Shown one piece after another: positions 255 through 54,530 of a stretch of DNA of 64,000 bases. The DNA comes from an uncultured Alphaproteobacteria bacterium (lineage in GTDB: Bacteria > Pseudomonadota > Alphaproteobacteria > RF32 > CAG-239): NCBI GenBank assembly GCA_944391715.1, contig CALXUP010000005.1:4277-68276 (forward strand), written 5' to 3'. The notes beneath the pieces are model-generated. The model was given only the letters and a program-made list of their open reading frames with translations. It did not search any database and was not told the origin of the DNA. Position numbers and translations under genes: made by a program. The number at the start of each line of letters is the position of its first letter. Within the stretch, counting starts at the first letter, position 1.

Positions 255-2195
255 ATGAATATTCTCGAGCTGCAGAACATCAACAAATTTTTCGGACAGG
301 GAGCGAATCGCGTTCATGTGTTAAAGGGCATAAACCTGACAGTTGAAAAAGGCGATTTTGTGGCCATTATCGGGCAATCCGGCTCCGGAAAATCGACCTT
401 AATGAATATTATCGGCTGCCTTGATACTCCGACATCCGGCTCTTACCGTATTAACGGCATTGAGGCCGGGAAAATGGATCGCGACCAACTGGCCGAACTG
501 CGCAGCCGAACTTTTGGCTTTATTTTTCAGCGTTACAATCTGCTCACCAGTCTAAACGCTCGTGAAAACGCCGCCCTGCCTGCTATCTATTTGGGGATGG
601 GCGCGGAAGAACGGACGCAAAGGGCAGTTGAACTCTTAAAACGTCTTGAACTCGGCAACAAACTCCGTAACAAGCCAAACGAACTTTCCGGCGGTCAACA
701 ACAACGCGTGAGTATTGCCCGTGCTTTGATGAACGGCGGGGAGATTATTCTGGCGGACGAACCGACCGGTGCCCTGGACTCAAAAAGCGGCGAAATGGTG
801 ATGGAGATTATTAAGGGACTGCACAAGCAGGGACATACCATTATTCTGGTTACGCATGACAGCAAAATTGCCGCCCAGGCCAGCCGGATTATTGAGATTA
901 AAGACGGCGAAATTGTTTCGGACGAGAGAAAAACTTCTGATTTTTATAAGATTGAAGAAGAAGTCAGAAAATTTAAGCGGAGTAAACTGGAAACTTTTAA
1001 ATACCGCTTTGCCGAATCGTTCAGTATGTCTATCCACGCCATTTTGGCAAACAAAATGCGCTCGTTGCTGACGATGCTCGGCATTATTATCGGTATTGCC
1101 TCGGTGGTTTCGGTCGTGGCGCTCGGTAATGCCTCACAGGCCAAGATTATGGAACAGATCAACTCCATGGGAACAAACACCATCGACATTATGCCCGGAA
1201 GCGGTTTTGGTGATATGCGATCCGGTAAAGTTAAAACACTGAAGGTCAGCGACTCGGACTATTTGAGTAAGCAGGGTTTTATTGATAATTCCACGCCCAG
1301 CGTTTCCGGCAGCGGCACGCTTGTTTACGGCAATACGTCTTCAACGGCACAGCTGAAAGGCGTCGGCGCGTCTTTCTTTGATGTCAAAGGACACAAAATT
1401 GCCCTCGGCCGGATTTTTACACAAGACGAGGTAAACAATATTGCCTCTGTCGTCGTGATTGACCATAACACAAAAAAAGAGGTGTTTGCCGACAATCCCA
1501 ATCCTATTGGCGAAATTGTCATTTTTAACAAAAAACCTTTGAAAATCATCGGTGTAACGGAAGAGGAAAATAACCCCGGCCCCCGGGCTGACGCGATGAA
1601 CCTCTGGGTGCCTTATACAACAGCAATGTATAAAATCAACGGCAGTACAGATATTAATACCATTACGGTCAAAATTTCGGATAAGGTTAATTCTCAGGTG
1701 GCGGAAACGAGTATTGAAAATATCCTAACGTCGCTGCACGGCAAAAAAGACTTTTTTATGATTAACAGCGACAGCATTAAGCAAACTGTTGAAAGCGCCA
1801 CCAATACCATGAAATTTCTGATTGCCAGCATTGCGGTTATTTCCCTGATTGTCGGCGGTATCGGCGTGATGAACATTATGCTGGTTTCGGTTACCGAACG
1901 GACGAGGGAGATCGGCATCCGAATGGCCATCGGCGCCAAGCAGGCTGACATTTTGCAACAGTTTCTGATTGAGGCGATTTTAATCTGCCTGGTCGGCGGC
2001 TTTATGGGAGTGGCGTTATCTTTGCTTATCGGCTTTGGCTTTAACACTTTTTCCGAAGAGTTCGGAATGATTTTTTCAACCGCCTCAATCGTGCTGGCTT
2101 TGGTCTGCTCGACGGGTATCGGAATCGTTTTTGGATATATGCCGGCGAAAAACGCTTCCAACCTTAATCCGATTGACGCTTTAGCGAGTGAATAA
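255..2195 (+). CDS. macB: MacB-type ABC transporter with fused ATPase and permease (macrolide/peptide export family)
   Basis: Walker A GQSGSGKST, ABC signature LSGGQQQRV, Walker B ILADEPTGALD, then a large periplasmic domain and C-terminal FtsX-like TM helices; start taken at MNILELQNINKFF. Confidence 0.85.
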   Translation: MNILELQNINKFFGQGANRVHVLKGINLTVEKGDFVAIIGQSGSGKSTLMNIIGCLDTPTSGSYRINGIEAGKMDRDQLAELRSRTFGFIFQRYNLLTSLNARENAALPAIYLGMGAEERTQRAVELLKRLELGNKLRNKPNELSGGQQQRVSIARALMNGGEIILADEPTGALDSKSGEMVMEIIKGLHKQGHTIILVTHDSKIAAQASRIIEIKDGEIVSDERKTSDFYKIEEEVRKFKRSKLETFKYRFAESFSMSIHAILANKMRSLLTMLGIIIGIASVVSVVALGNASQAKIMEQINSMGTNTIDIMPGSGFGDMRSGKVKTLKVSDSDYLSKQGFIDNSTPSVSGSGTLVYGNTSSTAQLKGVGASFFDVKGHKIALGRIFTQDEVNNIASVVVIDHNTKKEVFADNPNPIGEIVIFNKKPLKIIGVTEEENNPGPRADAMNLWVPYTTAMYKINGSTDINTITVKISDKVNSQVAETSIENILTSLHGKKDFFMINSDSIKQTVESATNTMKFLIASIAVISLIVGGIGVMNIMLVSVTERTREIGIRMAIGAKQADILQQFLIEAILICLVGGFMGVALSLLIGFGFNTFSEEFGMIFSTASIVLALVCSTGIGIVFGYMPAKNASNLNPIDALASE

Positions 2196-3558
2196 GATGA
2201 AGAAAAATATGTTTAACATACTGCTTTTTACAACTACGTTGCTGGTTTCGGGCTGCGCGACGGTTTCGCCTTACCCCTCCGACACGGCGGATGAGCTTAA
2301 TTATACCCGGGAAGTGCGGGAAAAATACAAGGCCAACGCTGACTGGTGGAAAGAATATGGCAGCAGCGAGCTCAACCGACTGGTCGATTTGGCTTTGGCG
2401 AACAATCCGGATTATCTGAAGGCCGCCATTAACATCAATAAAGAACTTTATAACTTAAACATTACAACGGCAGACCTGTTTCCGACGCTTTCCGGAAATT
2501 TAAACACTTCTTCCCAACGGCGGATTGATACCGGAGACAATTTTTCAAACAGCTTTTCCGGAGAGGCCGGGCTGAGTTATGAACTCGACCTTTACGGCAA
2601 AATCAGAAAACTGCAATCCGCGCAGGAATTTGAATATCAGGCCACAATCATGGACAAGGAAACGGCGCGGCTGAGCCTGATTAACAGCGTTGTCGACCTG
2701 TATTTTAATCTGGAATATCTGCAAAATACCATTGATGTTACCAAGAAGAACATCAAGGCTTATGAAGACATTCGCAATATTACCGAGGCAAAATACAAAA
2801 ACGGCAAGGCTGATGATTTGGAATTTCTGGAATCCAAGCAGAGTCTTTTATCCGAGCAAAACCGCCTGCTGGAGCTGGAAACCCAGTTCAAAGAGATGGA
2901 AACGAGCCTGAAAAATATTTTGAATATCCGGCAGGAAGAGCCGCTTGAGATCAAATTCAGCGATATTCTTGACCAGAAAACGCTCGGCGTCAACCTTGAT
3001 GTTCCGCTTTCGGTTCTGGCAAACCGTCCTGACCTGCTGGCCAGCCAGTATCGTTTGGAAAAGGCTTTTAAAAATCTGGAAGCCGAAAATACAAACTGGT
3101 ATCCGGGTATCTCTTTGCGTGGGGCTTTAGGTTCTTCTTCCGACAAAGCGCGCACGACGTTTGAATTTCCGTATATTTTGGGAAGCGTAGCGATTGACCT
3201 GCCGTTTTTGGACTGGACGCGCGTGAAAAACAACATTAAAATTTCGGAAGCGGATTATCAGATTGCGGCCATTGATTTTAAAGACACGCTCAATCAGGCC
3301 GTTAACGAGGTGGCTTATTATTACTTTGCTTACGGCAAAGCCACGGAAAGTTTTGATAATATTCAGGAAAATTATCAGAATTCTGTTAAAATTACCCAAT
3401 ATTACAAAGACCGCTATAATAACGGCAAGACGGAGTTTCGCGACTATCTGCAGGCCATTTACAGCGAAAATTCCCTCCGGAAAAACCTGATTCAGCAAAA
3501 GTATCAGATTATCAATTACGAGAACTACGTTTACAAAGCCATGGCCGGGAAGTATTAA
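2188..3558 (+). CDS. Outer membrane efflux protein (TolC/NodT family) partner of MacAB
   Basis: Lipoprotein-like N-terminus (LLVSGCA); two OEP-type repeats; 8-nt overlap with the macB 3' end. Confidence 0.8.
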   Translation: MNKMKKNMFNILLFTTTLLVSGCATVSPYPSDTADELNYTREVREKYKANADWWKEYGSSELNRLVDLALANNPDYLKAAININKELYNLNITTADLFPTLSGNLNTSSQRRIDTGDNFSNSFSGEAGLSYELDLYGKIRKLQSAQEFEYQATIMDKETARLSLINSVVDLYFNLEYLQNTIDVTKKNIKAYEDIRNITEAKYKNGKADDLEFLESKQSLLSEQNRLLELETQFKEMETSLKNILNIRQEEPLEIKFSDILDQKTLGVNLDVPLSVLANRPDLLASQYRLEKAFKNLEAENTNWYPGISLRGALGSSSDKARTTFEFPYILGSVAIDLPFLDWTRVKNNIKISEADYQIAAIDFKDTLNQAVNEVAYYYFAYGKATESFDNIQENYQNSVKITQYYKDRYNNGKTEFRDYLQAIYSENSLRKNLIQQKYQIINYENYVYKAMAGKY

Positions 3559-10056: not shown

Positions 10057-10431
10057 AAAAAACCCTCCATTGGAGGGTAATATATTGGCGCGACCCCAAC
10101 GGATTAGGGACTCCCGCGGGCGGGGCCTCCTTGCGCCGTAAGCCTCGCGCTTCTTAAAATCGCGCTCGTCAACTATCCGCTTCGAACTCTACGAGTTCAA
10201 ATCTCGGAGCTCGCATACTAAAACACCAAAACCCTCCATTGGAGGGTAATATATTGGCGCAACCCCAACGGATTAGGGACTCCCGCGGGCGGGGCCTCCT
10301 TGCGCCGTAAGCCTCGCGCTTCTTAAAATCGCGCTCGTCAACTATCCGCTTCGAACTCTACGAGTTCAAATCTCGGAGCTCGCATACTAAAACACCAAAA
10401 CCCTCCATTGGAGGGTTTTGGTGTTTTAGTG
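10057..10431. repeat. Tandem 169-bp repeats (2.2 copies), each ending in a ccctcc-att-ggaggg hairpin and carrying a segment resembling the tRNA-Glu 3' end
   Basis: Units at 10063, 10232 and 10401 (period 169) are near-identical; tggcgcgaccccaacggatt resembles tRNA-Glu tggcgaccccaacgagatt; the last partial copy forms the perfect hairpin ctaaaacaccaaaaccctcc att ggagggttttggtgttttag. Confidence 0.8.
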
Positions 10432-10505
10432 GCGACCCCAACGAGATTCGAACTCGTGTTCCCACCGTGAAAGGGTGGTGTCCTAGGCCTCTAGACGATG
10501 GGGTC
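10430..10505 (-). tRNA. tRNA-Glu (anticodon UUC), CCA encoded
   Basis: Minus-strand reading GACCCCATCGTCTAGAGGCCTAGGACACCACCCTTTCACGGTGGGAACACGAGTTCGAATCTCGTTGGGGTCGCCA folds as a canonical cloverleaf with anticodon loop CTTTCAC. Confidence 0.9.
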
Positions 10506-25786: not shown

Positions 25787-26074
25787 TCTACTAAATTATG
25801 AATAAATATATTCCCCTGCGTTTATAATTAATCCAATTTTATCTTTTTGAAATTATTATTTTAAGCTATCCACAGGCGGTGGCTTGTGCAGTCGGTTGTC
25901 AACACCACATTACAGAGGCCGTTGCCCAATATCCATGGAGATTATTTTATGCACGCCTTGGATTCCTGCGGCGTTCCGGCTGGATTTGTGAATGACGTAA
26001 AAATATCACCTTTTTCGAACCGGGTTTAAGAATCTGCCTTGATAATTCTGCTACTGTAACAACTCCGGAAATTT

Positions 26075-49120: not shown

Positions 49121-51196
49121 CTATGCAACTTCTTTTCTGGAAGCTGCGGCTCTTCTTTTTTCTGCCTTTTTCTCTTCATCACAGATCGGGCAATATTTAT
49201 GTTCACCGGAAATGTAGCCGTGTTTCGGACAAATCGAGAACGTCGGCGTAATGGTGACATAAGGCAGTCGGTAGTTGGTCAGAACGCGGCGAACAATGTC
49301 GCGGCAGACCTTGGCTGATGAAACTCTTTGACCCATGTACAGGTGAAGTACCGTACCGCCGGTGTATTTGGTTTGCAGTTTTTCCTGCAACTCCAAAGCC
49401 TCGAACGGGTCATCAGTGTAGTTAACCGGCAGCTGGGACGAGTTGGTATAATACGGATTTTCTTCTGTCCCGGCTTGCAGGATTCCTTTAAATCTCTTCT
49501 TGTCTTCGCGGGCAAAACGGTAAGTCGCACTTTCGGCAGGCGTGGCTTCCAGATTATACATATGCCCGGTTTCTTCCTGAATTTTTACCATTCTGTCGCG
49601 GATATGATTCAGGAATCTTTCGGCGAAATCTTGGCCCCATTCATCTGCAACATTGTGCTCGTCATTGGTAAAGTTGCGAATCATCTCGTTAATGCCGTTA
49701 ACACCGAAAGTCGAGAAGTGGTTGCGCAAGGTGCCGAGATAACGTTTGGTATACGGGAACAAGCCGTTGTCAATGAGTCTTTGAATAACTTTGCGTTTGA
49801 TTTCCAGAGAAGTTTTGGCCAGTTCCAGCAACTCGTCAACGCGGTTCAACAAGCCATGCTCGTCGCCTTTGTAAAGGTATCCCAAACGGGCGCAGTTAAT
49901 GGTAACAACGCCGATTGACCCCGTTTGCTCGGCAGAACCGAACAAGCCGTTGCCTTTGGCCAGAAGCTCGCGCAGGTCAAGCTGCAGGCGGCAGCACATT
50001 GAGCGAATCTGCCCCGGTTTTAAGACGGAATTGATAAAGTTCTGGAAATAAGGCAGGCCGTATTTGGCTGTCATTTCAAACAAGAGCTCAGTATTTTCAT
50101 CTTCCCAAGGAAAATCAGGAGTCATATTGTAAGTCGGAATCGGGAAGGTGAACGGACGGCCTTTGATATCGCCTTTCATCATAACCGAAATATATGCTTT
50201 GTTAATCATATGCATTTCTTCGGTCAGATCTCCATAAGTGAAGTCTTGCTCAACACCGGCAATCATCGGATGTTTGTCGCGCAGGTCTTCCGGGCATACC
50301 CAGTCAAACGTAAAGTTGGTAAACGGTGTTTGAGAACCCCAGCGGGACGGAACATTCAGGTTATAAATCAGTTCCTGGAAAGACTGCTCAACCTGCTCAT
50401 AAGTCAAATGGTCTACGCGGACATACGGTGCAAGATATGTGTCTACGGAAGAAAATGCCTGAGCGCCGGCCCATTCGTTTTGCAGAGTGCCCATAAAGTT
50501 GACCATCTGGCCGACAGCGGCAGACAGGTGTTTGGCCGGACCGGCTTCCGCTTTACCCGGAACACCGTTAAAGCCTTCATGCAACAGGTTTTTCAACGAC
50601 CAACCGGCACAATAAGCGGCCAACATATCCAAATCGTGAATATGAAAATCGCCGTTGCGGTGTGCTTCACCGACAGCCGCCGGATAAACATGGCTCAGCC
50701 AGTAGTTGGCCGTAACCTTGCCGGAAACGTTCAAAATCAATCCACCGTTAGAGTATCCCTGGTTGGCATTGGCGTTAACGCGCCAGTCCAGTTTTTCCAG
50801 ATATTCATTGATGGAGCTTTCAACATCAACCATGACCTTTTTATCAGAACGCATACGGTTGCGCTGGTCACGGTATAAAATATAAGCTTTGGCTGTTGCA
50901 AAATAGTTGGCAGAGATCAGAACCTGCTCGACAATATCCTGAATTTGTTCAATGGAAGGAAGAGACTCCGTAAACTTATGCTTCATAACCTTTAAGACCT
51001 GAGCAGTCAAAAGCCAGCTTTCCTCTTCGCCGAACTCGCCCGTCGTCGTACCGGCTTTGTTTATAGCGTTAAAAATTCTGGTGTTGTCAAACGGGGCTAA
51101 GGTACCATCTCTTTTAGTAACACTGTCAAAAGGGATGTTCTCGGCAATTTTGCTCTGAGAAATTTCGTTATCGTTCACGGACATATCTTCGCTCAT
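49121..51196 (-). CDS. nrdD: Anaerobic ribonucleoside-triphosphate reductase (class III) large polypeptide, lacking the glycyl-radical C-terminus
   Basis: ATP-cone N-terminus (VTKRDGTLAPFDNTRI), class III core, C-terminal Cys-rich Zn-ribbon (CPKHGYISGEHKYCPIC) then stop; start taken at MSEDMSVNDNE (51196) because the track ORF's N-terminus runs through non-coding-looking NrdR boxes. Confidence 0.85.
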   Translation of the reverse strand: MSEDMSVNDNEISQSKIAENIPFDSVTKRDGTLAPFDNTRIFNAINKAGTTTGEFGEEESWLLTAQVLKVMKHKFTESLPSIEQIQDIVEQVLISANYFATAKAYILYRDQRNRMRSDKKVMVDVESSINEYLEKLDWRVNANANQGYSNGGLILNVSGKVTANYWLSHVYPAAVGEAHRNGDFHIHDLDMLAAYCAGWSLKNLLHEGFNGVPGKAEAGPAKHLSAAVGQMVNFMGTLQNEWAGAQAFSSVDTYLAPYVRVDHLTYEQVEQSFQELIYNLNVPSRWGSQTPFTNFTFDWVCPEDLRDKHPMIAGVEQDFTYGDLTEEMHMINKAYISVMMKGDIKGRPFTFPIPTYNMTPDFPWEDENTELLFEMTAKYGLPYFQNFINSVLKPGQIRSMCCRLQLDLRELLAKGNGLFGSAEQTGSIGVVTINCARLGYLYKGDEHGLLNRVDELLELAKTSLEIKRKVIQRLIDNGLFPYTKRYLGTLRNHFSTFGVNGINEMIRNFTNDEHNVADEWGQDFAERFLNHIRDRMVKIQEETGHMYNLEATPAESATYRFAREDKKRFKGILQAGTEENPYYTNSSQLPVNYTDDPFEALELQEKLQTKYTGGTVLHLYMGQRVSSAKVCRDIVRRVLTNYRLPYVTITPTFSICPKHGYISGEHKYCPICDEEKKAEKRRAAASRKEVA

Positions 51197-51256
51197 TCCT
51201 TCGTTATTATTAGTTATAAAAAACAAAATTGTTTGTGTTATCACCTGATAACAAGC

Positions 51257-51306
51257 ATACAATATATAGTATTAACAAAATGTAAATAAGACTAGATATA
51301 GTATGC
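51257..51306. promoter_or_regulatory. Two NrdR-box-like 16-mers spaced 32 bp, upstream of nrdD
   Basis: atacaatatatagtat (51257-51272) and agactagatatagtat (51289-51304) each match the NrdR consensus acacwatatatwgtgt at 13/16; 32-bp centre-to-centre spacing is typical. Confidence 0.45.
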
Positions 51307-52117
51307 ACAGAAAAATTTTTTATTTCAAAATTCTTAACGCGTATCATCTTGAATATGCTGATATTCTGAGCGAAATATATGATGCAAACAAGGGCAAAAA
51401 AATTCTTTTTCCGGCTTGACATTGCTATCTTGCTATAATTCCACCAAAAAAAAATTTTTTTAATAGTGGATAAAAAGATTAACCTTTCTTAACAAAAAAA
51501 ATATCATTATTTTTCAACGTTATAGATTCTTGACGTAATCAACATATTTGTACACAAGGGGCACAAAAAAAGCTTAAATTTACAAAAAACATTTTCGGTT
51601 TCAGAAGCATCCTCACAAGATATTGTGTTTTATATGGATTCGAAATACAGAATCAGGAAAAGGACTCGGTCTTTTGGTAAAAAGAAGCAAAATTTTTGAG
51701 AATCGATTGGTGTTTTTTCCTTATCTCTAAAATTCACTTTTTATTTATTATTCTTTTTCTTATTTCTTGTTTTTTATAATTTATTTTTATTGTTACTTTT
51801 TGGGTGCAAAGAAGCTTTTTCTTACTTTTGCTTGACCAAAAGTAAGCAAAAGTCAATCCCAACCTCATTTTCTAAGCTTTCAGCCCAAAGTTAAAGTCGC
51901 TACGCTCCAATGCTCTGTACTTCACTATTACCCCTTTGGGCCAAAAGCTAAGAAATCATTCGGTAATCGGGCTGGTCAACTCCCCCGCCCCTCAGGCTTG
52001 AGGGGAGAGGGGCTTCACTTTCGGTTTTTGCTCCAAAACCTAAGCTATTCGCAAAGGGCACCCAATCGTGCCGGATGAGGGATTGTGCATTAAAGTTTTG
52101 TCATTCTCGGGCTTTCT

Positions 52118-52527
52118 TTTCTTATGTCATTGCCGGACTTGACCTGCACGGCAGGCGCGCGGCAAGTTGACAGCACTGTGCCACAGAGGCCGCGTTGCTA
52201 TGGCGGGGTCTGTGAATGGCGTTGTACTTTGAAGGGTGGATTCCTGGTATCTTTTTCTTACGTCATTGCCGGGCTTGACCCGGCAATCCACGTTAATAAA
52301 TTAGCCTTATTGTTGATCTGGATCCCCGGGGCGGTGCCCGGGGATGACATAATAAAAAACACAGCTCGGGGATGACGAGAAAAAAACACGACCTGGGGAT
52401 GACTATAAAAAAGAGAGTCCGGCAATGACCGGTGCGACCGGTGGCGCTCAATCGGTAACATTGTGCCCTGAGGATCGCGTTGCTCCTGCGGGATTTGTGA
52501 CGAGCATTGTGCTTTGAAGTTACTGCC
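52118..52527. repeat. Duplicated MITE-like unit (A at 52118-52247, B at 52257-52527) with shared ends and short inverted termini
   Basis: Both units start ttcttaYgtcattgccggRcttgacc and end in related about 60-nt segments (gaggNNcgcgttgct...ctttgaag); unit B carries an extra about 155 bp bounded by gtcattgccgg / ccggcaatgac inverted repeats. Confidence 0.5.
52340..52420. repeat. Three tandem 26-28-nt direct repeats (ggggatgac-N-A-rich)
   Basis: ggggatgacataataaaaaacacagctc / ggggatgacgagaaaaaaacacgacct / ggggatgactataaaaaagagagtcc, preceded by palindrome tccccggg gcggtg cccgggga. Confidence 0.55.
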
Positions 52528-52595
52528 AAGAATAGTCTTTAGCATCGATGAGTTTTCTTTCTACCACCTAGACTATTCTCCTTAAAAATCAACAT

Positions 52596-52625
52596 GAAAA
52601 AAAGCACTCCGGAGAGTGCTTTTTT
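52596..52625. terminator. Hairpin terminator of the TolC-like lipoprotein gene (bidirectional)
   Basis: aaaaaaagcactc cgga gagtgcttttttt. Confidence 0.55.
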
Positions 52626-52628
52626 TGT

Positions 52629-54530
52629 TTAGTACCGCGGACGGGTTTCTATTTCTTTGCCGATTTCACCATTGGCAATGTAATCATCCGCACAATTTGT
52701 TCCGCGGCAGCGTTTCAGCACCGTAGCATTCCGGCCTTTGGTCAAACCTCTGACCTGCATTGACGGTACATAGACTTCATCGACAATAATCTTAAACGTA
52801 ATATAATTAACATTGCCGTACTCATCTATAATATAGACCTTCACATGATAGGTTCCGCCGTCTTTCGGCATCGGCGTTCCGTAGAACGTCATTGTTTTTT
52901 CATCAAAGGTCAGCCAATCCGGCAGCGGGCTGTCATCTATCAAGCCGGCTTTGAACGTCAGATTACCGCGGGCATTGAGATCTTTCAGAGCATCTTCCGG
53001 AATGCTATAGAGATAATCTTGTCCGGTTTCCAGTTTTTGGTCAGGAACATCTTCCGTCGACAAATTAACCGGCGGGCGTTTAGACGGCACGTTCAACAGA
53101 TACGGGCGGTTGTCCGGCAGGAAATCGCCATCGCGCCATTTTTCCAGCGTTGTATGCAGATAGACGGCGATTTTAGACGGTTTTTCTCCCAGCATATAAT
53201 AAGGCAGCGCATCAAGCCCCAGCGCAGCATAAAGGTTTCCGAGCGAGGCCTGAAGTTCGATATAAGCCTTGGAAGCTTTGACCTCGTCGGCAATGGCGCG
53301 GGCAGCCTCGAGCAAAGATTTCGAATCGTGACTACCCAGTTTTACCGTAATATCTTCGGCAATGTCTTCCGATACATTGGCGATTTCAATATTAATCTGA
53401 TAATCTTCCATCGCCGACATATAAGCAGCCCAACCGACATACAGTTGGCTTAAAACCAGGTTGGTCATCCGCTGGCGGCGCAAGGCTTCCAGCTCGCCGG
53501 TCCGGGGGTTTTTGACATCTTCAAAAACATGATAGCCGATTTCCTGAGCTTTGCGGCTCCAGACTTTATTATAATAAGCCGGATTGCTTTGATAATCGTT
53601 TTGCGTGGTTGACTTGAACTCCTGAATGGTAAACTCCAGGTTCTCGTCAATATTCACCATATCACGCATTTTGAGTTCCGGGCGGTTGGTCAGAGCCAGC
53701 CATTCCATATCGGCCAGCGGCGTGCGGATATCCGGCAGGGCAAAATTGCCGTACAACTTGCCGACCAGTTTGTATTCCGTTGCCGGATGAAAACCCATTA
53801 AGGCGGCCAGTTTGGTTTCGGCCGTTTCCATTCCGCGTTTTAACTCGGACAAGTTTTTAACGGCTTCCATATATTCGCGCTTTAACACCAATTTATCTGT
53901 CGGCAGATACTGATTTAATTTTGCAAGGTCTTTGGCCTGAGCATTCAGCTCGTCAACCTCCAGCGTCAAGACCTCTATCATATCATCAATCACCGGCAGC
54001 AGACGCTGTGCCGTCAGAGCCTGCCAATAAAGCACGCGGGTTTCCTGCAGCAGATTGTGAATAACCTTGCGGCTCTGCTCAAAAGCCAGATTTTTGCGGT
54101 ATTCCTGGTCGACGGTCTGATAATAAACCGTGCTCATATCCAAAAGGTTCCAGGCCAGTCGGAGCTCGGAATTGGCATCGGACAGGGAATCGGTGCTCAG
54201 GTAGCCGGCCTGCCCCATAATCTCGGGAATCTGGTTGACCGGAGATTTTCCGGCCTTTATCAAACTTTCTTCATAACTGACAACGCGGCGGGTGAAGTTA
54301 TATTTCAAGGCCAGCGCCATTGTCATATACATATCTATCGGCTTTGAAATTTTGCGCGGCTGGTTCAAATACATATTCTGCATATCCACATCGGCGCGGA
54401 TTGCGCTGTCCCAATCGGAATAAGTCGCCGATGATACGGTTGTTTCGCTGACGGAATATTCTTCTTCGCGCGGGCCGCAGGAAACAACAAAAAACATGCC
54501 CAAAACCAAACATGCCAATATTTTTTTCAT
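52629..54530 (-). CDS. Outer-membrane-factor (TolC/NodT)-like lipoprotein with a C-terminal Ig-like (putative He_PIG/cadherin-like) domain
   Basis: Lipobox FVVSCG; two OEP-like repeats (LAWNLLD..., VLYWQALTAQ...); C-terminal DDSPLPDWLTFDEKTMTFYGTP motif; no adjacent ABC or MFP genes. Confidence 0.6.
   Translation of the reverse strand: MKKILACLVLGMFFVVSCGPREEEYSVSETTVSSATYSDWDSAIRADVDMQNMYLNQPRKISKPIDMYMTMALALKYNFTRRVVSYEESLIKAGKSPVNQIPEIMGQAGYLSTDSLSDANSELRLAWNLLDMSTVYYQTVDQEYRKNLAFEQSRKVIHNLLQETRVLYWQALTAQRLLPVIDDMIEVLTLEVDELNAQAKDLAKLNQYLPTDKLVLKREYMEAVKNLSELKRGMETAETKLAALMGFHPATEYKLVGKLYGNFALPDIRTPLADMEWLALTNRPELKMRDMVNIDENLEFTIQEFKSTTQNDYQSNPAYYNKVWSRKAQEIGYHVFEDVKNPRTGELEALRRQRMTNLVLSQLYVGWAAYMSAMEDYQINIEIANVSEDIAEDITVKLGSHDSKSLLEAARAIADEVKASKAYIELQASLGNLYAALGLDALPYYMLGEKPSKIAVYLHTTLEKWRDGDFLPDNRPYLLNVPSKRPPVNLSTEDVPDQKLETGQDYLYSIPEDALKDLNARGNLTFKAGLIDDSPLPDWLTFDEKTMTFYGTPMPKDGGTYHVKVYIIDEYGNVNYITFKIIVDEVYVPSMQVRGLTKGRNATVLKRCRGTNCADDYIANGEIGKEIETRPRY

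Follow-up and report, generated by a model that had tools for sequence, protein, structure and literature searches.

Organisation of the gap upstream of nrdD

The DNA analysed here, called the window throughout, is a 64-kb stretch from the genome of an uncultured alphaproteobacterium. At 51197-52628 it contains a 1432-bp intergenic gap with nrdD on one side and, on the other, a gene for a 633-aa He_PIG protein whose N-terminus has a lipoprotein-type signal. The gap probably consists of two unrelated parts, a control region of nrdD (51197-51747) and a mosaic array of repeats (51748-52569) built on repetitive extragenic palindromic (REP) hairpins. The same reading, held with good confidence as a whole, takes the array to be one of many in the genome, located at gene 3' ends, and not a dedicated control element of nrdD.

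The division into an AT-rich part next to nrdD and a GC-rich distal part, described in a first-pass annotation of the sequence, was recovered with GC contents of 26-30% over 51200-51800 and 45-54% over 51800-52500. The phased A/T tracts of that annotation were not borne out, as the 29 tracts counted in 604 bp showed no dominant 10-11-bp periodicity. Its terminator of a TolC-like gene was correct in part: an intrinsic terminator does lie at the outer edge of the gap, but the gene that it serves is not TolC-like (OEP, E=3.7, 7.7 bits), and the genuine OEP gene of the window is at 2188-3558.

Open reading frames (ORFs) in the gap range from 70 to 95 aa, the longest lies inside the repeats, and the unique part (51197-51747, ~26% GC and non-coding) has 8-17 stops per frame, in agreement with the earlier view that no credible ORF is present. 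The 70-95-aa ORFs could be taken as remnants of a decayed, frameshifted gene across the gap, a finding that the first-pass annotation had named as refuting its own interpretation. However, they fall in repeats or in 26% GC DNA, relatives have no gene at the corresponding gap, and the extra 113-aa gene of one related lineage (L145; compared loci and contigs are cited by L-numbers) has left no trace in the window. The pseudogene reading is refuted by the stops per frame and the gene-free gaps of relatives, and next to no probability is given to it.

The GC-rich half recurs at other intergenic loci

The unit motif of the array was scanned against one genome per species (185,579 species). The strict unit pattern was detected at 13 sites, 12 of them on at least 10 contigs of one metagenome-assembled genome (MAG) labelled "uncultured Alphaproteobacteria bacterium" and one in a second MAG. 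The copy count that the first-pass annotation had proposed for its units thus finds them recurring at other loci. Locus L008 is the orthologous nrdD locus of the representative genome; across nrdD and the DNA next to it, its identity to the window is 95-100%. When 51101-52700 was compared by BLAST with the 13 family loci, 51197-51747 had zero matches except to this orthologue and each base of 51748-52569 had 1-30, indicating that the entire GC-rich 820 bp is made of modules recurring at other intergenic loci of this uncultured alphaproteobacterial species. The other arrays are likewise intergenic, 220-1250 bp long, and begin 0-160 bp past stop codons. Convergent genes flank four of the arrays and tandem genes three (including that at nrdD); no array lies between divergent genes.

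A second polymorphic array locus of the family was observed at ~25880-26010 of the window, where one decayed unit lies upstream of a fliF-like gene; the representative genome (L013:7727-8000) has a larger array with intact REPs at this site.

Anatomy of the REP hairpins and units

Complete REPs, 48 in the window and the 13 loci together, occur in both orientations. The hairpin is 28-29 nt long and reads GTCAT, a 7-nt arm, a 5-6-nt loop, the complementary arm and ATCC(A), with three stem types (CCCCGGG/CCCGGGG, TGCCGGR/YCCGGCA and TCTCGGG/CCCGAGA). The stems evolve under a constraint that preserves the palindrome: pairing within the 9-bp stem reaches 97.5%, four pairs are changed on both sides, and the A-T and T-A pairs at its start (columns 4-5 and 26-27) are invariant. 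Among 45 copies scored in the family loci, the tag is TGTC in 24, CGTC in 12, AGTC in six and GGTC in three, and 43 of the 45 end in CCA. Most loops have 5 nt (CTTGA-type); about one third have 6 nt (CTTCGA, CACCGA, CATCGA and others), including that of the REP at 52319-52348. Adjacent REPs are mostly placed with the tags outside (17 pairs versus 4 tag-inside), and the two complete REPs of the array at nrdD, 52262-52290 and 52319-52348, form such a tag-outside (HH) dimer at 52262-52348. Dimer spacers are either a conserved 30 nt or ~95 nt, the latter corresponding to the "unit" of the first-pass annotation.

On the minus strand, units of ~140 nt each form a chain that reads TTCAAAGCACAA-N23-GCAACGCG-N8-GGCACAAT, ~32 nt and a hairpin. 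The ~95-nt unit has fixed motifs between a few discrete variable blocks, and the blocks occur in shuffled combinations, indicating that the unit itself is a recombinational mosaic. Its 3' part comes in three versions, which carry the hairpins CAGGC-cgtc-GCCTG, CCTGC-cgt-GCAGG and CCGGT-cgc-ACCGG. For the 21-bp stem of module G, the composite repeat nearest to nrdD, seven copies were compared; pairing is 95.9%, and at eight pairs both partners have changed.

The repeats listed in the first-pass annotation were all found again at their stated places and could be placed in this framework (Table 1). Its two related units share a head of 28 nt at 93% identity (52117-52144 and 52253-52280) and a common tail of 61 nt at 70% identity (52174-52234 and 52459-52519). 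Its inverted repeats, GTCATTGCCGG and CCGGCAATGAC, are perfect over 14 nt, and its strong hairpins have DNA folding z-scores of -2.3 to -4.4. The 26-28-nt tandem repeat was detected by Tandem Repeats Finder at 52339-52412 (2.6-2.7 copies). These 27-nt repeats are truncated REPs: the GTCAT tag and the left arm are kept, the REP breaks off after the first base of its loop, and a T-rich stretch of 13-15 nt comes next. This half-REP plus T-run module is present in 12 of the 13 family loci. All truncated REPs end within the loop; the two at 52100-52114 and 52126-52142 are separated by a T-rich junction. The 155-bp insertion in unit 2, in contrast, did not hold up, as the segment is the common chain of half-REPs, full REP, 30-nt spacer and inverted REP found at other loci.

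Table 1. Features of the nrdD locus, by position in the window
Feature	Position	Strand	Details
nrdD	49121-51196	minus	Pfam NRDD and ATP-cone
18-bp perfect palindrome	51236-51253		TGTTATCA-cc-TGATAACA; between promoter-like site and nrdD start
Proximal NrdR box (predicted)	51257-51272	minus	ATACTATATATTGTAT; 6/6 conserved positions
Distal NrdR box (predicted)	51289-51304	minus	ATACTATATCTAGTCT; 6/6 conserved positions
Upstream AT-rich region of nrdD	51305-51747	minus	unique; no second copy in the DNA searched
Module G, ~350-bp composite repeat	51748-52099	minus	copies in L017 (89% identity), L009, L007, L019, L003 and L145
Hairpin in module G	51821-51846		CTTACTTTTG-cttgac-CAAAAGTAAG
Covarying 21-bp long-range stem in module G	arms 51869-51890 and 51934-51955
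Hairpin in module G	51988-52005		CCCCTCA-ggct-TGAGGGG
Partial unit start in module G	52068-52094
Two truncated REPs (tag, one arm, part of loop)	52100-52142	plus	type R 52100-52114; type Q 52126-52142
Unit b, module D version 2	52143-52174	minus	small hairpin CCTGC-cgt-GCAGG
Unit b, module C	52175-52234	minus	tail of unit 1 in the first-pass annotation; 70% identical to unit a
Complete CGTC-type REP, stem type Q	52262-52290	plus	GTCAT-TGCCGGG-CTTGA-CCCGGCA-ATCCA
Short spacer, conserved 30-nt	52290-52318	minus	AGATCAACAATAAGGCTAATTTATTAACGT; recurs in L007, L008, L016 and L017
Complete CGTC-type REP, stem type P	52319-52348	minus	GTCAT-CCCCGGG-CACCGC-CCCGGGG-ATCCA
Three tandem 26-28-nt half-REP plus T-run copies	52349-52429	minus	52404-52429, 52377-52403, 52349-52376
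Unit a, module D version 3	52430-52459	minus	small hairpin CCGGT-cgc-ACCGG
Unit a, module C	52460-52519	minus	CTTCAAAGCACAA-N23-GCAACGCG-N8-GGCACAAT; 60-nt tail of unit 2 in the first-pass annotation
Leader module	52520-52569	minus	AAAACTCATCGATGCTAAAGACTATTCTTGGCAGTAA at 52520-52556; also opens arrays in L007, L012 and L017
Intrinsic terminator of the 633-aa lipoprotein/He_PIG gene	52597-52626	minus	13-bp stem, then T-run; outer edge of the intergenic gap
633-aa gene upstream of nrdD	52629-54530	minus	Pfam: only a C-terminal He_PIG Ig domain

The exact hairpin GTCATCCCCGGG-N4-7-CCCGGGGATCC was also observed on more than 120 JGI metagenome contigs (L020-L139) of 50-72% GC, indicating that one stem type is not lineage-specific. 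Among 126 metagenomic copies, the tag is CGTC in 111 and the tail CCA in 115, and 66 have a partner in inverted orientation no more than 90 nt away. The hairpin is usually paired there with GGATGGCCGGG...CCCGGCCATGAC at a distance of 4-60 nt. This 28-mer is common to a gut bacterium, with coding regions of ~45-55% GC in the window, and to soil or peat bacteria. Literature searches with the raw sequence strings returned cloning primers only.

Turnover of the array among strains and its absence from sister lineages

The exact NrdD of the window is encoded on many metagenome contigs, and on six of these the flanking genes are the same. Five of them have gaps of 1065, 1326, 1430, 1431 and 1573 bp, and the sixth ends within the gap. 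The ~800 bp nearest to nrdD are almost invariant among strains. Differences in length are confined to the GC-rich distal part, where L003 has a single unit, the window two and L002 three. In some strains an 8-nt variable block is exchanged between neighbouring units, which looks like gene conversion, and the representative genome (L008) has yet another version of the array. The alignment shows that the array grows, shrinks and exchanges patches between near-identical strains.

In the lineage with 97% identical NrdD (L145), the gap is 2041 bp long and contains a different array version and an extra gene. Three sister lineages (NrdD 94, 92 and 90% identical) have gaps of 442-458 bp with no array and share the gene order VirB8, He_PIG gene, nrdD and small NRDD-domain ORF, followed by nrdG except on contig L147. 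The variation among strains and the absence from sister lineages indicate that the array is a recent, lineage-specific and strain-variable addition.

Two further observations were made on these contigs. The gap of L145 holds the 113-aa ORF at 2267-2608 as well as a long (GGACA)n microsatellite, both absent from the window. Strains that share an identical NrdD also differ in the inserts found about 5 kb downstream of nrdD (L003:17022-22076, L004:16957-22076 and L002:16811-20041, downstream of nrdDG), and these inserts mark a second strain-variable hot spot. The insert types are a ResIII/RE_endonuc set, a type I restriction-modification system (HsdS/HsdM) with RhuM, and a GtrA/glycosyltransferase set.

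Recombination versus transposition as the origin of the mosaic

In the favoured reading, the array would have been appended just downstream of the terminator of the neighbouring gene, with CGTC-tagged REPs of three stem types as its framework. Tandem and dispersed copies would recombine homologously and convert one another, which would drive the turnover. The breaks would be concentrated in the REP loops, which may be preferred sites of breakage or insertion. The array would then be selfish or neutral DNA, a recombination hot spot parked between the terminator and the nrdD control region.

The first-pass annotation had proposed miniature inverted-repeat transposable elements (MITEs) or a graveyard of nested mobile elements. 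The repeats are indeed dispersed, but their anatomy fits a mosaic of REPs and spacers better than nested MITEs bounded by terminal inverted repeats (TIRs) and target-site duplications (TSDs). A graveyard of true MITEs, mobilised by a transposase and nested by successive insertions, would account for the 21-bp inverted-repeat stem of module G, which is TIR-like in that it encloses 43-61 nt and carries subfamily-specific compensatory changes. It would also fit a 174-bp element located precisely in a REP loop in L005, L008 and L145, the REP being intact in L002 and L003, and the contig L006, which breaks inside this insert. On the other side, neither the units nor the 155-bp segment were found to be flanked by TSDs, and what had been taken for an insertion in unit 2 is a chain of modules that other loci also contain. 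The independent recombination of the variable blocks points to a mosaic formed by recombination and not by nested insertion. No transposase was found in the DNA searched. The 174-bp insert, the only clean filled/empty site and one that lacks a TSD, does not occur in the window, and no copy of it was detected elsewhere in the DNA searched. The MITE graveyard is thus considered rather unlikely.

The 174-bp element itself was characterised at L005:8888-9061 and L008:5636-5809, where it lies within the loop of a CGTC REP (GGATTCTCGGG/TGTAAATT...CTATCGACT/TCAAGCCCGAGAATGAC, with slashes at the junctions). It is inserted exactly 3' of the loop sequence CTTGA, at the border of loop and arm, with no target duplication, and it contains a partial ORF; in the window the corresponding REP is a truncated half-REP. 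A shorter deletion derivative is present in L145 (~2885-3010), and the broken contig L006 starts inside the element. Subterminal hairpins near both ends resemble those of miniature IS200/IS605-type (PATE-like) elements. No further copy was found in the family loci, and no exact match in the JGI metagenomes.

The half-REPs cut after the first loop bases, the insert 3' of CTTGA and the REP intact in L002 and L003 together suggest a bolder version of the favoured reading, in which the CGTC-REP array is still active and polymorphic among strains, with its rearrangements having their breakpoints in REP loops. This version is speculative, and we regard it as unlikely. If it were true that a site-specific or single-strand enzyme acts on the loop, the numerous near-identical strains in metagenomes could reveal how CGTC REPs spread.

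Evaluation of RNA and regulator-site alternatives

Small structured RNAs, or an mRNA 3' or 5' element in the GC-rich half, were also considered, since the first-pass annotation had suggested structured small RNAs. The strong hairpins, the covariation of the REP stems and of the module G stem, and the restriction of G-U pairs in the latter to the minus strand, on which both flanking genes run, are consistent with such a role. However, a permissive Rfam scan (E<=1) of 50500-53500 gave chance matches only (mir-3613 and Antizyme_FSE, E ~0.1), and the unit body has no consensus structure (RNAalifold on 20 units: -1.03 kcal/mol, 3 pairs). Folds of single units barely beat shuffled sequences (z -0.4 to -2.5), no module is framed by a promoter-terminator pair, the array lies downstream of a strong terminator, and copy number differs among near-identical strains. 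The RNA reading is therefore judged improbable, with a small opening left by the covarying 21-bp stem in the module at 51862-51962. A scan of the whole window at the Rfam gathering threshold yielded two tRNAs only.

A cluster of iteron-like or other regulator sites that controls nrdD at a distance, the third suggestion of the first-pass annotation, would explain why short motifs recur upstream of nrdD, namely GCACAAT three times, GCAACGCG and the 27-nt tandem repeats. The same motifs, however, stand beside unrelated genes, mostly at their 3' ends. The array differs among strains whose NrdD is identical and whose proximal promoter region does not vary, and it is missing from the sister species that keep the predicted NrdR operator described below. 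This alternative is considered very improbable.

The nrdD control region and a predicted NrdR operator

The first-pass annotation had pointed to two NrdR-like 16-mers 32 bp apart, and this distance was confirmed, counted from start to start. Both boxes have C4, A6, A8, T9, T11 and G13, which are the highly conserved positions of NrdR boxes (PMC13584703). They are separated by a 16-bp linker, matching the published 15-16 bp (or 26-27 bp; PMC13584703), and the pair is the sole match in the 64-kb window even when one mismatch is tolerated. A sigma-70-like promoter overlaps them, with a -10-like TATTGT (51259-51264) inside the proximal box and a -35-like TTTACA (51281-51286) in the linker. The pair is kept in four related lineages (NrdD 97, 94, 92 and 90% identical) with linkers of 15-16 bp, while other intergenic DNA has diverged. 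In a five-lineage alignment of the DNA upstream of nrdD, few conserved islands remain, and the tandem NrdR site is the strongest.

The arrangement agrees with the NrdR operators of ribonucleotide reductase operons (PMC13584703, PMC9110341) in its two partially palindromic 16-bp boxes, its 15-16-bp linker and its overlap with the promoter of an nrd operon (nrdD, small NRDD-domain ORF, nrdG), with no notable difference. These features support the tandem boxes as a high-confidence predicted NrdR operator of nrdD. By the published NrdR mechanism, NrdR tetramers loaded with dATP and ATP would bind both boxes and occlude the promoter, and the class III reductase operon would thereby be repressed when dNTPs are plentiful.

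Other parts of the control region were also inspected. An island at 51413-51482 (minus strand) is conserved across five lineages (NrdD 90-100% identical) amid diverged DNA; it includes a DnaA-box-like sequence, TTATCCAC (core TTATCCACT at 51465-51473), after which come an A/T run and AAGATAG. The island may be a second regulatory input to nrdD. The 18-bp palindrome at 51236-51253 differs among strains in its central dinucleotide and is not kept in relatives with 90-94% identical NrdD. No FNR site (TTGA-N6-TCAA) was found in the region, and an FNR reading of TTGATTACGTCAA near 51531-51543 was rejected, as the spacing is wrong. Compared with the representative genome, the AT-rich region is 96-100% identical and nrdD 95-99%, with no extra conservation.

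Further repeats in the window

Two tandem direct repeats of ~184 bp each lie at 10059-10457, beside tRNA-Glu (10430-10505, minus strand). Each opens with a tRNA 3'-end-like TGGCGCGACCCCAACGG... and holds a T-arm-like segment on the plus strand. Possible origins are duplication of tRNA fragments or scars of att sites; the intact tRNA is the only one called by ARAGORN and Rfam.

Relation to known repeat systems

CGTC REPs, as described by Di Nocera et al. (2013, BMC Genomics 14:522, PMC3733652), have an unpaired CGTC tag (often TGTC or CCTC), an 8-9-bp stem starting with A-T, a 4-5-nt loop and a CCA tail. They mostly form tag-outside dimers with spacers of 20-100 bp, lie downstream of genes, are prevalent in alpha-proteobacteria and lack an associated transposase; large clusters are rare, Wolbachia and Neisseria excepted (PMC3733652). 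The REPs studied here share the tag, the 9-bp stem, the CCA tail, the HH dimers with conserved spacers, the sites between tandem or convergent ORFs and the alphaproteobacterial host. No dedicated transposase was seen here either, in ~1 Mb of loci and 10 small ORFs, which cover part of the genome. The differences are that TGTC is the commonest tag and that lineage-specific spacer modules are attached.

Neisserial intergenic mosaic elements (NIMEs) consist of 20-bp palindromic repeats around repeat families of 50-150 bp in chained arrays (Bentley et al. 2007, PMC1797815). Their arrays are syntenic and vary in length between strains, have been proposed as recombination substrates and are a known integration target, and they were "not observed in non-neisserial genomes" (PMC1797815). 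The present array resembles NIMEs (dRS3 and RS elements) in its short inverted repeats flanking spacer families of 30-150 bp, its chained intergenic arrangement, its synteny with strain-variable unit number and length, its new spacer variants arising by recombination, and its palindrome as insertion target; the NIME dRS3 (ATTCCC-N8-GGGAAT) is itself classed as CGTC-1. By contrast, the REPs here read ATTGCC, ATCCCC or ATTCTC, then N11-12 and the complement. They are longer (9-bp stem, 28-29 nt) and combined with other spacer families, the host is alphaproteobacterial and not betaproteobacterial, and no phage or Piv-type recombinase was identified for the array. As REP sequence, spacer families and host differ, the array works in the manner of a NIME without belonging to the family.

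The alternating REPs, conserved linkers, inverted doublets and extragenic position at gene 3' ends also recall the bacterial interspersed mosaic elements (BIMEs) of E. coli and the REP doublets (REPINs) of Pseudomonas (PMC3116915, PMC3337134). Those systems, however, have a GTAG tag and cleavage by a REP-associated tyrosine transposase (RAYT, TnpA-REP), whereas the tag here is CGTC and no RAYT was detected in the REP-bearing loci. Overall, repeat arrays of this kind are ordinary in bacteria, although the present one is well preserved.

Several points weigh against the two-part reading and its mechanism. About one third of the loops have 6 nt, beyond the published range of 4-5, and REPs occur nearly always in large clusters here, although such clusters are described as rare. 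A tblastn search with E. coli RayT against the ~1 Mb of REP-bearing loci gave no match, a Pfam search of the 10 small ORFs beside arrays gave ordinary genes and no Y1 transposase, and clustering of 1704 ORFs near metagenomic REPs gave no recurrent neighbour family. No transposase or recombinase is thus tied to the repeats, and the mechanism of their spread is one that we infer. For the operator, a tblastn search with an approximate query of E. coli NrdR found no match to nrdR in the 64-kb window and the family loci. Finally, the array may have a role at the RNA level, the candidates being mRNA 3' stabilisation and the covarying stem with minus-strand G-U pairs.

Implications of the two-part reading

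In this reading the control DNA of nrdD is limited to the proximal ~550 bp. For annotation, the 1.4-kb gap is neither an overlooked gene nor an exotic regulator, and the 95-aa and 83-aa ORFs in the repeats should not be called. The locus documents a mosaic of the NIME/BIME style on CGTC-type REPs in an uncultured gut alphaproteobacterium of ~1.9-2.0 Mb, and the strain-level length polymorphism of the array is a possible typing marker. Loop breakage, if true, would further demonstrate that arrays of the NIME type occur outside Neisseria. The interest of the locus is modest overall; it is a natural experiment on the expansion and contraction of CGTC REP arrays, for which no transposase is known, and its strain polymorphism and loop-targeted insertion offer a small handle on CGTC REP evolution.

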